Shown: positions 50,738 to 56,923 of the stretch, one piece after another
How positions within the stretch are numbered: the first letter of the stretch is position 1
Layout of the letters: each line of letters begins with the position of its first letter
From: Trypethelium eluteriae
Taxonomy: Eukaryota
DNA: 64,000 bases
Direction: 5' to 3'
NCBI GenBank assembly: GCA_051942245.1
Contig: JAVECL010000012.1
Coordinates: 1 to 64,000 of the forward strand
The notes under the pieces: model-generated
The model's database searches: none
Told to the model about the DNA's origin: nothing
The model's input: only the letters and a program-made list of their open reading frames with translations
Position numbers and translations under genes: made by a program

Positions 50738-53700
50738 TTAATCCCTTAGTTTGAGCATGACGTATGGGATCTCGACATCCTCTTCTGACTGATCCTCGGC
50801 AGTGATCTCGAAAATGACGTTCTTCTGGTGATCCGGAATCTTCTTCTTGCTAATGGTTTCGACCAGCTCGCTAAGTCTGCATCAAGAGTAAGTACGGTCT
50901 TTTGCTTGAGGGATTTGAGGTTGTGGGTAAGAGTAGATAACGTACTTTAGGGGCAAGCGGTCCTTGAGTTTACTGGGTGCATAAAAGCTCGCATAGAGCA
51001 AGCTGACACCACTCGATACCATTGTGACATTAAGCCCCTTTTTATCGAAGTCGTCAAGAAACTCTTGCAACGTCACATTCGTCACCTCAAATCGATCCCA
51101 TAACTTGTCAACGATTACTTCACCATTCCGGCCCAAATACTTGCCTTTGGGGCTAGCAATTGGCTCGCTGAAGCCGAAAAAGGGGAGAGCAAGATTGACG
51201 AAGCCATTTTTGTATTGCTCAATGTCAGTCTTACCATCAATGAGCTTGAAAAGTTCAAGTACGACGAGACCCGTAACAAGCGCGGTGGTGGTGGCAATGG
51301 CAGGAATAATCTTGCCAGCGATGAACTTGGTCTTGTGACGATCTGCAGTCGCAATTTTGTAGTTTTCTGCGCGCAGATTGCTTGCTGCTGTGATAAAGTC
51401 AATATGGAAGTTTGTGTCATCATCCTTTTCGAACTCGACGGGCTCCAGCTTGAAACCGGCCAGAGATTTGGGCGGTGGCAGGGTGTCAACAATTCTTTGG
51501 AGCTCGTCGTTGTCGCCCGCGGGCTGGCTGGCATTCGGATCCGGCTCTTTATCATCGGCCTGGATCTTGACTCCTGGATCTGGCTTGAAGTCTGGAATGA
51601 TCATGTTTTCAAGTACCTTCACGAATTGCTCTTTGCTGGCGTCTTTGGGATTTATATTGTAGTTGAACGCGTGCAATCTTGCTGCCGCTTCCACAAAGGC
51701 GAAGTGCGTGAAGTTCGAGGGATCAAATTTTAGTGGATCTGGCGCACGTTTGGGGCCAGACCAGAAGGGCTGCCCACTGGAGGTCTTGGAGTCCTTGGGG
51801 AAATTGTAAAGTAATTGTTGAATGGCATTGTTGTACTGCTTCTCGAATTGGTCGCGTGCCCACACTATGCAGTCATCAAACGTCAAAGGTTTCTCCGTCA
51901 CAAGAAAATCTCGAAGAGTCTCTAAAGTCTGCTTCTCGTTTCCAGATTGCTTCAGTGCAGTGCCGAGATAATTGGGTTGGGTAAGGTACAGGTTGACAAC
52001 TTCAGGTGGGCCAACGAAGTAGCTATGGAAGAGATCCTTGGCCCACGCAATTGTGTGCTCAATCCGGTTAGGAAAGCTGCGAAGTGTACACATGGGGAAT
52101 GACTGCTCTGGCGGATCCTGAGAACTTGAATAGGACTCGGTAATCATCGGCAGCACAACTTGTGAGTTTGCCTTGGTTCCAAGAGTACCGCTGTCCAGCA
52201 AAGGTTTGCGGAAGAATACGCATCGGCGGTCGACATACGTTCTGGCATCGACGTTGTCTAGAGCGTTCGTGACAGCATCCAGACGACCCCAAAACTCCTC
52301 ATCGAAGACGTGCTCTGTGTCTGGCCCAACGCGGTCTTTCAATGACACGATCTTGCCTTTGAGCTCAGGATTCATCGCCTGGACGGCTTTTGCAGCACAC
52401 TCGCTCTTCAATTGGCCCACATCATTTGGTCTGAAGAGAAATTGTCGATTCAGGTTGCTCCGCTCAATTTGATCCATGTCAGTTATGGTAATGCTGCCTT
52501 CCGGTCCTGTACCCAGACCAATCATCGCCCAATTCTTGAGCATTTCACATCCAATGGCACCGGCGCCGACCAGAAACTGTTTCATATTCGCAATTTTGTC
52601 CTGGAAGTCTTTACCAAAAACTGCAAGCTGACCATCATATCGCGTGCCTAGCGGTTTGCACAATTCCTCGGACCGCTCGAATGTTGTTGGGAGGGACTCT
52701 AGCGAGTCAAAGTAAAGCCATTGCTTGATTGGATGAAACTTGCCCGAGACGGACTTCAGAACTTCCTGGGCAGCGAGACCTCCGAAAAATGCGGCCATCG
52801 GACTGAGATCTCCTCGTGCTTGGTAGCTGAGTTCGGTGATTATTTTCTCGTCGAGATCCACATTTTCCTCGCCTTGACTTGCCAGAGCTTGCGCAATTTT
52901 CAAAACCTCGGACGTATCGCTAGCATTATGTGGTCTCGGTAACTCTCGTCTGTGCTCTTCTGCAAACGCGTGCAAAGCCTGGAATCCAATGTGCAGTTGT
53001 TGAGGTCGGTCAAATTTCGCAAAGTCGGACATCATGAGCTCAGGCTTCTTCAGTTGCGTCCTCAGCGGCTCAAAGTCAATGATCTTGGGCATCTTGACTT
53101 GAGTATATAAGCCACCTCGCTTGTACTGGCCGAGGCCGGTCACATCACCTATCGAGAAAGTGTAGGGTCCCTTGACAGTGATTTTCCTTGGAGCTGTATC
53201 GTTGAGACCTTCCATACCTTCAAGTTCCGAAAAGGTCACGAAGTCACCGTCCTCCAAGCCGTGCCTCGTTTCATCTAGCGCTGAGACAAGACCCTCTGAA
53301 TCTATACCAGCCACGATGCCGCTGCTTGGACTTTCTCCATTAGGATCTCCACATGTAAAATTCTTTCCAAAGTCAGTAAAGACTGTTCCAAACAAGCCGA
53401 ACGTGTCGGTGATGACGACATATATGCCATGCTGATGGCAATAATCTGAAATGGCCAGTTGGTCTTTCAAAGGAGTGTCTGTGAGGACTACGACTTGGTA
53501 CTGACTGAGCTGGCTAAGATTCGAGCTCAGGTTGTCGGAAGGATGGACAGTGACAGGCACGTAGGGGTTGAGCTCCGAGACTCTAGGTGCCGTGGCTTTT
53601 GCTCTGGGAAGGCCGACGTCGCTTGGATGGAGGAAAAATTGAGAGGAGAGGTCCGATATTGTAGCAGGCCTTGGGTCGTATAGAGTTAGTGACTTCACAC

Positions 53701-53911
53701 CAGCAAGAGCGACGTTTTTCGCGATTTCGACACCGAGACCTCGCAACCCGACGATGAGAATATTTGAAGAGCCCATGCGCTTCATAGCCTCATGACCCAG
53801 CACGTAGAGCTGCCTGCTATACAGAGACTCATCGATCTCGCCGTTTGCGCCCTTGAGCTGCTCGGCAACCGCAGCTGGTCCTCCGTCAATCTGCATCTTG
53901 TTGTCCGTCAT
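50738..53911 (-). CDS. UBA1: Ubiquitin-activating enzyme E1; intron 50877-50945; first AUG at 53911 with the frame open further upstream
   Basis: [33 protein letters not shown], active-site [25 protein letters not shown]; last exon ends [14 protein letters not shown]. Confidence 0.98.
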
Positions 53912-54660
53912 GGTTTTTTTGTTCGGACTCGCGTCCTCGTCGGAGTGGCGCCTCTTCCCCAGCCTGCCGCTGGCCTCGTGGGAAGGAATCGTGACCGTCA
54001 AACAAGAAGTTCTGGAGTTCGAGTAGAGTAGGAGGCAGTGGAGGCAATGTAGACTGTAGTGACGTCGATAGCTCCACCGTGGCGAGAGGAGTACTCTAGA
54101 AGAGGTTTAAGTGACTCATGTCAAGGAAGACGAAGGGAGGTGGCGTGTGAGACAGGCAAAGGAGTAGACTTAGCAGCAGGCTTGAGGCGACAGGCAGAGG
54201 CAGCTGCGTTGATGACAAAATGGTCCCAAGCTTTGCGTATGATAGTGCCCCGCCACCGCATATAACATAAGGTACTAGGGTGCTGTAACCACCGTAACCA
54301 GGAGCCCACCACACCACGTCCATGTCCGCGTCCTTGAACAACCGAGCAAACACGCTTCTGCTACTCTTCAAAGACCTCGCGGTCGTATGATTCGACCATG
54401 TTTGTCTTGAAGCTCATAACCTTATGGCTGGCTGTTCGACCTCGTTCATGCTGACACGAGGAAGAACCTCCAATCTCCTCATTGAAAATTTCTAGATATT
54501 ATGATAGTTTGGACTATCATCACAAGATAGTGCATTAAGCTTGTTACATGAAGCATTCGATGAGGTCGACTATTACTCTATGCTATGAGAAAAGCCTTCC
54601 TCCATGGTTCTCCATGAATGACTTCATGAAGAGAAGCTGAGAGGTTCCCTAGCAGGCTGA

Positions 54661-54927: not shown

Positions 54928-55837
54928 TCTTCGTTCCGAAGCAATAATGAAATCACGATAGCTGAGCCGCTAAGTTGGGCTTACTCTACCAGAAGTCAGG
55001 AATGCGAGCAAGCCAATCGCAAAATTGATAACCCCGGAGCACCGATGGTCATGAGTAAAAGGAGATGAAGAACGACCTATGTCCTATAGAGAGGCCAGTG
55101 CTAGTCGATAAAGTCTACATGTTTTCGGAGTAGCATTTGACCAAATCCAATGGTCATGCTGTGACGAAGAAGGCTTTGTTGATGCTTTGGTCAATTACAA
55201 TACCATGGCTGTCTCAGTTACCACATTTTTCCTACAAGGTGACACGTTTCAAGCAGGACCGCCACAAATTTTGAAAAACCGAATGGGTTAATGACTCCTT
55301 CAGCTGTCCTGCCTCAGATTATGATGAAAAAGGCTAGCCGCGCGAAGCCGTATGCAAGACAGGTTTGGCCCCATCATCTCGATCGGCTTCCGATTAGATA
55401 AGCTTGACATTTTTACGACGCTAATCCCATTTCTCTACTGGCCTATGATATTTTGCCTTGCTAACAACCTGCTTCTTGGACAACCTTTGAATTCGAGGGC
55501 TGATAGTTTTTCTCACCCTGCTCGTCCGAATCAGTCCTCGGAAGTCTCTCTGGGCTGCGAATGCCAGGTAATCTTACCCTTTGCGTCACTATCTCGCCCG
55601 CCATGCCCGAAAAATCACTCGGTAATCTGAGAAAGCGCTCTCCCTATGCCGACTATCCCTTCGACAAGTCGTGGCTATGTATCACAGTAGTAACATTCTA
55701 TGAGTATAAAGGTTTCCGCGTCTTCCGGTATGTAAGTCTTCTTCATGCTGCATGCATACGAACTTTCTATTATCGAAACTTCATTTCATACATCAAGTAT
55801 CTTCTCCTGTCTTCAGCCATTGGCCTAGTTCCTCAAG

Positions 55838-56923
55838 ATGGTGGCCAAGCTTCCGACAACAGTCATGCTCCTATTCTCAGTAGTCTTGGGTGTCGCATTG
55901 CCCACTGCAAGACCCCAGGACGAAAATGTCACTGCAGCTGATATTGACAACCCTGATTTCGGTCCCATTCCTGGTGAATCTTCTTACTACACGAACTACA
56001 CCGGCATTAAGCCTCCTTTCCCTGACCGTTATAATGATTCGGTTCCTGCCAGCAGCAGTGGGCCTCCAGGTCCGGACGATGCTCTCTGGCAAAACCTAGC
56101 TAGCGCGGAGTGGATCGTATACAGATTTTATCAGAAAGGCGTGGAGACGTTTTCGCAGTCTGACTTCATTGAGGCAGGCTTCCCGGCCAATACGTACAGT
56201 CGTCTTATGGAGATAAGAGACAACGAAGCCGGACATTTACGCATTTTCCAAGATGAGATCTCGCATGACTCACTGAAGCCCGGCCCATGCGAGTATTCTT
56301 ACCCATTCACGGACCCCAAATCTTACCTAGAACTCCAAACAATCATTGAGCTTTCCAGCATGGCGTTTCTCACCGGACTCACGCAGACGGCTCAGCTTAA
56401 TTCTAGTAAAGGAGCGCTTGTCGCAGCGGCACAGGTTGAGACGCGTCATGAGGTTTGGTCTCTTATGGATATCTGGAAGACAGATCCCTTTGCTGGCCCG
56501 TTCGACACCTCTTTCCCATATGCCACTGAGATATTACAAGTTACCAACGATTTCGTTATTCCAGGATCTTGTCCGCCCAACAATCCTGTTTACCCTGTCC
56601 CTTATCAGAACCTGCCCCAAATTGAGGCCATCGGCGCCGCCGCCCCTGGAAATAGAATCGAATTGGAGTACCTCAATCAGTCCCACATCCCGGAATTCAA
56701 GACCAACACTGACTATTACGCCGTTTTCTTCCACGGCGTCTTCAATATCAGTGTCCCATATGATCCCAGCACCAACTACACCACAATTCCCTCCGCTTTT
56801 GAGGATACTGGTCTTATTATCGGTGTATTAGCTGATACTCGAGGTGCGCCGACACTTGACAGTGTGGTTGCAGGACCTATGGTCCTGGTACAGAAGCCGT
56901 CGGTTCTGTCTGTTCAATCATAA
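55838..56923 (+). CDS. Secreted ferritin-like (Rds1 / Ferritin_2-type) protein
   Basis: Signal peptide; NLASAEW..FY, EIRDNEAGH, IELSSMAFL, QVETRHE di-iron-type motifs; FVIPGSCP; several N-glycosylation sequons. Confidence 0.88.
   Translation: MVAKLPTTVMLLFSVVLGVALPTARPQDENVTAADIDNPDFGPIPGESSYYTNYTGIKPPFPDRYNDSVPASSSGPPGPDDALWQNLASAEWIVYRFYQKGVETFSQSDFIEAGFPANTYSRLMEIRDNEAGHLRIFQDEISHDSLKPGPCEYSYPFTDPKSYLELQTIIELSSMAFLTGLTQTAQLNSSKGALVAAAQVETRHEVWSLMDIWKTDPFAGPFDTSFPYATEILQVTNDFVIPGSCPPNNPVYPVPYQNLPQIEAIGAAAPGNRIELEYLNQSHIPEFKTNTDYYAVFFHGVFNISVPYDPSTNYTTIPSAFEDTGLIIGVLADTRGAPTLDSVVAGPMVLVQKPSVLSVQS

Follow-up and report, generated by a model that had tools for sequence, protein, structure and literature searches.

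We analyzed the first 64,000 nucleotides (nt) of contig JAVECL010000012.1 from Trypethelium eluteriae (GenBank assembly GCA_051942245.1), a stretch that is referred to below, at its full length, as the window. Its reverse strand carries UBA1, the gene for ubiquitin-activating enzyme E1, and the reading frame of that gene remains open upstream of the annotated AUG. Judging from this leader and from those of its orthologs, we regard it as very probable that UBA1 is made from the AUG and, in addition, from in-frame CUG and AUU codons, and the resulting N-terminal extension would most likely serve as a nuclear import signal. The sequence features on which this reading is built are present in the window, and their conservation is deep and codon-specific.

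Results

The stop-to-stop frame at 50882..54106 (reverse strand) comprises 1074 codons and its translation is that of a ubiquitin-activating enzyme E1. The annotated AUG, which would be the start of the short isoform, occupies 53909..53911 in the context AAA ACC ATG ACG. The 65 codons 5′ of it are open, with neither a stop nor an ATG, back to a TAA at 54107..54109, the nearest in-frame upstream stop and hence the 5′ limit of any extension. Within this leader, the proposed near-cognate start CTG is found at 53960..53962 in the context GGC AGG CTG GGG (G at -6, C at -4, A at -3, G at +4), and the 16 residues encoded between it and the AUG (53912..53959) resemble a bipartite nuclear localization signal (NLS), with KRR at 53956-53948, KK nine residues further on at 53920-53915, and the serine of a KRRHS sequence at 53944-53942. 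A second conserved in-frame near-cognate codon, ATT, lies nine codons 5′ of the CTG at 53987..53989 (GTC ACG ATT CCT; C at -4, A at -3). The peptide encoded between the two, PSHEASGR (53963..53986), falls within a motif, (T/K)-I-(P/S)-(S/P)-H-(A/E), that is conserved in orthologous loci and in public protein models named Aspergillus, Teloschistes, Psora, Drepanopeziza, and Claviceps. Further in-frame near-cognates are TTG at 54001 and ACG at 53998 and 53992. An ATG is absent in every frame from 54117 to 53912 (~205 nt 5′ of the UBA1 AUG); the next ATG in the 5′ direction (54119) belongs to another frame and is the sole ATG within ~350 nt upstream of the UBA1 start.

An earlier note on this DNA, made from the letters alone, had described an AUG at 53911 in the context AAAACC ATG, an open and AUG-less frame upstream, a CTG at 53962-53960 with A at -3 and G at +4, and a KRR..KK arrangement, and each of these was found as claimed. 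The note had also listed TTG, ACG, and ATT at 54001-53987 as alternative near-cognate starts; all are present in frame, and the ATT at 53989 proved in addition to be deeply conserved. Taken from the window alone, the feature could be due to chance, as an open stretch of 17 codons is common and the KK could reflect an A-rich (Kozak) leader before the AUG. The test therefore had to be comparative. Set beside 78 other assessable loci, the extension is, on the sequence evidence, not a product of chance.

For this comparison, metagenome contigs were scanned with the residues encoded by 54001-53462 as query, which gave 492 stretches, of which 228 were confirmed by tblastn as fungal UBA1 loci and the best 80 kept; the taxon labels of these loci rest on similarity to named proteins. 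Two loci (L064 and L076) end before the region, leaving 78 loci plus the window, or 79 assessable sequences, which became 66 distinct sequences when identical copies were collapsed. The extension was present in 79/79 assessable sequences, in one of them (L037) across a 1.1-kb intron. At the position of the window's CTG (the Leu position), the codon was CTG in 49 of the 66 distinct sequences, window included, TTG in three (L043, L044, and L046), ACG in one (L009), ATG in seven (six Cladosporium-like loci and L056), and GCT or GCC in six (L023, L024, and L031-L034). The Leu codons that are not near-cognates (CTC, CTT, CTA, and TTA) occurred there in none of the 66. An A at -3 was found in 49/49 CTG sequences and in all of those with TTG or ACG (53/53), and a G at +4 in 48/49 and all, respectively (52/53). 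In none of the 66 sequences was the extension interrupted by an in-frame stop, and the interval from the start position to the main ATG was free of ATG in all three frames.

Conservation has a sharp 5′ edge. Across 52 sequences with a near-cognate codon, information content stayed under 0.7 bit throughout positions -36 to -7, then reached 1.86 bits (G) at -6, 1.55 (C) at -4, and 2.00 (A) at -3, was high over the codon, and was 1.86 at +4. A conserved near-cognate codon in a good Kozak context thus stands at the edge of conservation, which begins at -6. Upstream of it, the interval from the nearest stop to the CTG lacked an in-frame ATG in 43 of the 46 CTG sequences whose upstream stop lies inside the locus; the exceptions were L006, L014, and L030, and three more CTG sequences run off their contig. 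The upstream stop was as close as four codons to the CTG in L004, seven in L057 and L062, eight in L038, and ten in nine sequences, among them L017, L019, L022, L052, L058, L059, L060, and L063.

Codon choice at the Leu position was compared with that at three invariant Leu columns of a 10-residue block in the same 65 sequences. These control columns used five to six codons each, with CTG in 16, 26, and 20 of the 65 sequences, showing that the sequences appear divergent enough to have shuffled synonymous Leu codons elsewhere. CTG and TTG together filled 71/195 control cells versus 51/51 at the start column (Fisher p = 3.5e-19, phylogeny ignored). In the seven sequences with ATG at the Leu position, which represent two lineages only, the context is weak, with C at -3 and A at +4 (TAT CAC ATG ACC, GCT CAT ATG AAG). 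A weak-context ATG would still allow leaky scanning, and the pairing of weak context with ATG and optimal context with CTG would be the expected result if selection maintained a constant, partial use of the upstream start. N-myristoylation of Met-Gly was considered as the reason for the Gly that follows the CUG and was ruled out, the ATG lineages having Thr or Lys there; the Gly appears better explained as supplying the +4 context base.

Downstream of the start position the leader behaves as coding sequence. In the 43 sequences that read LGKR, mean pairwise differences at codon positions 1, 2, and 3 were 0.335, 0.314, and 0.577 over the seven codons after the start, compared with 0.66, 0.675, and 0.70 over codons -10 to -3. 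Synonymous variation is present right beside the CTG, where Gly is encoded by GGG in 29, GGT in 13, and GGC in one, Lys by AAA in 22 and AAG in 21, and Arg by five codons. The extension also differs in length by whole codons (17-22, 34, 35, or 46 codons). The codon-position variability, the synonymous changes, and the absence of stops all point to purifying selection on the extension in the frame of the main open reading frame (ORF), and conservation would seem to start at a Kozak context, rather than at a splice acceptor, and to continue from there as coding sequence. The earlier note had expected that orthologous leaders would share an open frame, a KRR..KK motif, and a near-cognate start, and had named stops, frameshifts, and a missing basic motif as evidence to the contrary. 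The alignment bore out the former, with KR(R/K)..KK spacing kept and the near-cognate conserved (CTG 49, TTG 3, and ACG 1 of 66, with ATG in 7); stops were found in 0/66, and the spacing was kept in 59/65.

The in-frame ATT 5′ of the Leu position was shared by 23 distinct sequences, window included. Its distance to the Leu position was 36 nt in 16 sequences, 33 in four, 21 in two, and 27 in the window. All 23 motif-bearing sequences had C at -4 and A at -3, often as GCC ACC ATT, and the ATT was followed by codons for (S/P/T)-(P/S)-H-A-(D/E) or P-S. The codon was always ATT and never ATC or ATA; at control conserved Ile columns, ATT filled 12/41 cells (p = 6e-9). All six sequences without a near-cognate at the Leu position, those with GCN, carry the ATT motif. 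An in-frame stop lies three codons before the ATT in L050 and six codons before it in L023 and L031, and a one-base indel immediately 5′ of the ATT sets L033 apart from its relatives. Variation after the ATT was periodic (0.50, 0.40, and 0.68 at the three codon positions versus 0.68, 0.64, and 0.68 before it), and sites of the form A..ATT within 75 nt upstream numbered 24 in frame versus seven and three in the other frames. Versions of the motif (FTIPSE, TFTITPHAE, FKIPSSAS, and ATIASHV) were recovered from named Aspergillus, Lecanoromycete, Claviceps, and Drepanopeziza models. These results suggest that AUU 53989 is probably a second start beside the CUG, both being present in the window.

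Two observations concern the ATT motif in other lineages. In L057 and L062, a look-alike (GCCACG ATT CAT) is found out of frame, 37 nt 5′ of the CTG, and an in-frame stop lies seven codons before the CTG; the look-alike is presumably a relic of a lost start, or else the motif has a nucleotide-level role. In six Claviceps models (P0145, P0146, P0151, P0152, P0154, and P0160), which read ..FKIPSSAS.DV(R/Q/P)GKRKLS.., the K-I-P-S motif is present and the Leu before GKRK is absent, and initiation in this lineage may depend solely on the AUU, as in the six GCN loci.

Named lineages were represented by protein models, the DNA comparison having been made with metagenome loci. A protein search in which residues 1-150 of the open frame served as query gave 3042 proteins with E ≤ 0.001 among 3446 candidates. 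The top match, P0001 (Viridothelium virens per NCBI), has 1034 residues, is 100% identical, and begins at the ATG at 53911; public annotation therefore omits the extension, as the earlier note had said it would. By tblastn, P0001 maps to 53911..50738 on the reverse strand, with coding exon 1 at 50946..53911, one 69-nt intron at 50877..50945 (GTACGT...TGCAG) near the 3′ end of the gene, recognized as a 23-codon gap in the alignment, and a last exon at 50738..50876 that includes the TAA stop. Among the best 120 matches listed, 29 models contained the extension peptide, with the pattern (K)LGKR(R/K)xS..E....P.KK(I/V)M(T), and the carriers were Aspergillus, Teloschistes, Psora, Xanthocarpia, Cladosporium, Zasmidium, and unnamed sources. 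Six of the 120 begin with Met exactly at the Leu position; five of these read MTKR(H/Q)L(S/P)EAEA..., one of them named Cladosporium fusiforme, and the sixth, from Zasmidium, reads MKRRAESP.... A second search, made from the Leotiomycete-like locus L048, gave 3654 matches, and 18 of the best 120 listed contained the peptide. Its carriers included Drepanopeziza, Lachnellula, Chlorociboria, Hymenoscyphus, and Pseudogymnoascus, together with the Sordariomycetes Claviceps and Metarhizium. The peptide is accordingly found on named models from Dothideomycetes, Eurotiomycetes, Lecanoromycetes, Leotiomycetes, and Sordariomycetes. A search with the region of the extension alone (query residues 36-80) returned ten candidates, none with E ≤ 1, as so short a query can hardly reach significance in a database that large.

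Altogether, 47 of the 240 public models examined include the peptide, and only six of the 47 start exactly at the Leu position, where they have an ATG. Among the models with the extension, the sequence 5′ of the motif is unrelated from one to the next, a pattern that would follow if gene callers had taken any available upstream ATG. In P0010, P0028, P0033, P0100, P0114, P0123, P0125, P0175, and others, the extension is reached through non-conserved upstream sequence or through fusion to a neighboring gene, giving models of 1140-1778 residues that contain additional Pfam domains (GST or FKBP, for example); such models look like artefacts of annotation, brought about by the lack of an AUG. The 3′ side of the main AUG shows a peculiarity of its own. 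In 40 of the 66 distinct sequences, a 5′ splice site (GTRNG or GTNNGT) follows codon 2 of the AUG-initiated ORF (ATG ACN | GTAAGT), and in three more it directly follows the ATG, which places the main AUG 3-6 nt before exon 1 ends; no intron is found at this point in the window. An intron right after the AUG is the probable reason that many public models have the next Met (MQVD or MDVD) as their start.

The peptide itself has the layout of a bipartite signal. A KR followed after 10-13 residues by a basic pair was found in 59/65 distinct sequences (11 residues in 33), the linker sequence being variable, and KR(R/K)xS was found in 54/65. In the window, KR, ten residues, and KK follow one another, in agreement with the two-cluster and linker arrangement of a bipartite NLS, and in some orthologs the downstream cluster is KKEK, KRK, or KKK. 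By this motif comparison, the extension peptide is most likely an importin-alpha-type bipartite nuclear import signal.

Discussion

From the sequence we infer that the CUG and AUU codons are included in the mRNA, that ribosomes initiate at them, and that the longer products are imported into the nucleus. In the mechanism that we propose, most scanning ribosomes would pass the leader and start at AUG 53911, producing the annotated E1 of 1034 residues. A minority would start in frame at CUG 53962, in its optimal context (G at -6, C at -4, A at -3, G at +4), and would add 17 residues, and AUU 53989 (C at -4, A at -3) would probably also be used, adding 26. The KRR...KK clusters of the added peptide, 10 residues apart, together with an RRxS site, would form a bipartite nuclear import signal, and one gene would thereby supply both nuclear and cytoplasmic pools of ubiquitin-activating enzyme.

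Several points weigh against this mechanism. The loci come in part from close relatives, so the counts are of sequences and not of independent events, and the choice of the best 80 of 228 matches to a query that contains the extension may favor loci that have it. Transcription could start downstream of the CTG. Near-cognate starts are inefficient, so the long isoform may be rare, and we found no downstream hairpin that would aid a weak start, the predicted fold of 53995-53885 (-27.5 kcal/mol) being no better than that of shuffled sequences (mean -26.9; z = -0.21). A classical bipartite NLS consists of two basic clusters joined by a linker of ~10-12 residues, the downstream cluster having at least three basic residues of five; the window's downstream cluster, KKTMT, has two of five and is thus weaker than the consensus. 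Finally, homology of the fungal signal with that of human UBA1 is only hinted at, since alignments were inconsistent between query lengths: HMMER with a 180-residue query aligned query 16-180 with human 9-171 and placed the fungal KRR opposite human residues 9-11, a 67-residue query aligned the conserved core only (query 35-66 with human 42-73) and not the KRR, and a 50-residue query gave no match to the human N-terminus.

Other explanations of the conserved leader were weighed against initiation at CUG and AUU with nuclear import. The extension might be translated from these codons and yet not serve import, acting instead as a phospho-regulated interaction or degradation motif (RRxS plus acidic residues) or as a tuner of main-ORF translation. 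The second basic cluster is indeed short (KK in the window), and KR(R/K)xS, with its 54/65 sequences, fits a kinase site as well as an NLS. The retention of a 10-13-residue cluster spacing in 59/65 sequences despite a variable linker is, however, the geometry of a bipartite NLS, and the N-terminus of human UBA1a holds both an NLS and phospho-serines (PMC4596250), so the two functions are not exclusive; a role other than import therefore strikes us as unlikely. It is still harder to believe that the conserved block is an untranslated DNA or RNA element, with UBA1 made from the AUG only. The relic of the ATT motif that lies out of frame in L057 and L062 would indicate some nucleotide-level conservation without coding, but such an element sits poorly with three-base periodicity, with synonymous Gly, Lys, and Arg changes, with length differences of whole codons, with the lack of any stop or any-frame ATG in 66/66 sequences, and with the replacement of the Leu codon by ATG at the exact position in seven. 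In addition, an Rfam scan of 53700-54500 gave only an 11-bit match on the opposite strand (gathering score 40), which was taken as chance, and the fold described above showed no excess of RNA structure (z = -0.21).

We give almost no credence to the remaining alternative, in which splicing joins an upstream exon, bearing a normal AUG, to the extension; initiation would then be canonical and only the annotation wrong. Potential YAG acceptors do exist between the in-frame stop and the CTG (54095, 54053, 54011, 53969, and 53963), and one weak donor, GTGGGC at 54309, lies 3′ of an ATG at 54323. The earlier note had seen nothing that would splice in such an exon, and this held up: 54700-53962 contains neither a GTNNGT donor nor a CTRAY branch point, and its sole GTRNGY is the GTGGGC at 54309. 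Five formal combinations of ATG, donor, and acceptor could be assembled and were rejected, all of them running through that weak GTGGGC and none having a CTRAY branch point. Across the loci, conservation is gone 5′ of -9, where neither an acceptor nor a pyrimidine tract is conserved, and the sequences that read AAA CTG have no AG near the codon. A spliced exon would also leave unexplained the restriction of the Leu codon to CTG and TTG, the constant A at -3, and the ATG that stands exactly there in the Cladosporium-like loci L005, L012, and L013, with a stop three codons upstream.

Translation of UBA1 from AUG, CUG, and AUU would have a close parallel in animals. Human UBA1a and UBA1b differ in their translational start, and the first 11 residues of UBA1a comprise an NLS and serines needed for phosphorylation and nuclear localization (PMC4596250). 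The two cases would be alike in the enzyme, in the use of two in-frame starts, and in a long form that adds a short basic N-terminal peptide with adjacent serines. They are unlike in that both human starts are AUG (Met1 and Met41) and the human extension has 40 residues, whereas the window has CUG and AUU, with 17 or 26 residues, and only 7/66 orthologs have an ATG there. By analogy, the window's UBA1 would be a non-AUG variant of the human UBA1a/UBA1b pair.

A second parallel comes from the same subphylum. In Pezizomycotina, cpc-1 has an AUG-less N-terminal extension bounded by deeply conserved CUG, AUU, and ACG codons, at which initiation has been shown in vitro (Ivanov et al., 2017; PMC5487733). 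As in UBA1, the extension is under purifying selection, the near-cognates stand in good context, and they have been exchanged for one another in particular branches. In contrast to UBA1, whose extension is short, carries a targeting-type motif, and is known from sequence, the cpc-1 extension has ~180 residues, is entangled with control by upstream ORFs (uORFs), and was examined in vitro and by ribosome profiling. The text of PMC5487733 contains no occurrence of "ubiquitin" or UBA1. The literature covered, with most subscription journals outside its scope, yielded no non-AUG or NLS-bearing fungal UBA1 isoform.

More generally, in yeast GRS1 and ALA1 and in human PTEN-L and FGF2, a weak upstream non-AUG start adds a targeting signal, and the main form is made by ribosomes that scan past this start to the AUG. 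These genes resemble UBA1 in that, on one mRNA, an upstream near-cognate adds a localization peptide, and they differ in that the signals are mostly mitochondrial or secretory, or nuclear in animals. The UBA1 extension would thus join a known kind, that of N-terminal extensions initiated at near-cognates and adding a localization signal.

UBA1 stands at the top of the whole ubiquitin system, and the nuclear supply of E1 bears on protein quality control in the nucleus as well as on DNA repair and histone ubiquitylation. Human cells balance the two UBA1 isoforms, nuclear and cytoplasmic, by means of two AUGs; here, the same outcome appears to be reached through CUG and AUU, conserved across five classes of filamentous ascomycetes as judged from named models. 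If this is true, the leader would serve as a natural reporter of fungal near-cognate initiation that is clean, short, and easy to mutate, UBA1 annotation would need correction in hundreds of genomes, and a testable link would exist between translational stringency and nuclear ubiquitylation. A more far-reaching scenario, which we put forward tentatively and on balance doubt, is that the nuclear share of E1 in filamentous ascomycetes is set by start-codon stringency, with AUU and CUG making the nuclear-to-cytoplasmic E1 ratio responsive to the status of eIF1, eIF5, and eIF2-alpha, for example under stress, and that RRxS phosphorylation acts as a switch. In this scenario the basic tag would go back to the common ancestor of fungi and animals and would share its origin with the human UBA1a NLS. 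Near-cognates would have taken the place of its AUG in Pezizomycotina, and Cladosporium- and Zasmidium-like lineages would have regained the AUG, its context there being deliberately weak.

Other features of the window

The out-of-frame ATG at 54119 opens a uORF of seven codons at 54096..54119 (reverse strand; ATG AGT CAC TTA AAC CTC TTC TAG, encoding MSHLNLF*), which is relevant only if transcription starts upstream of it. On the forward strand, a 364-codon open frame at 55829-56923 lies ~1.9 kb upstream of UBA1 in divergent orientation and is probably a neighboring gene.

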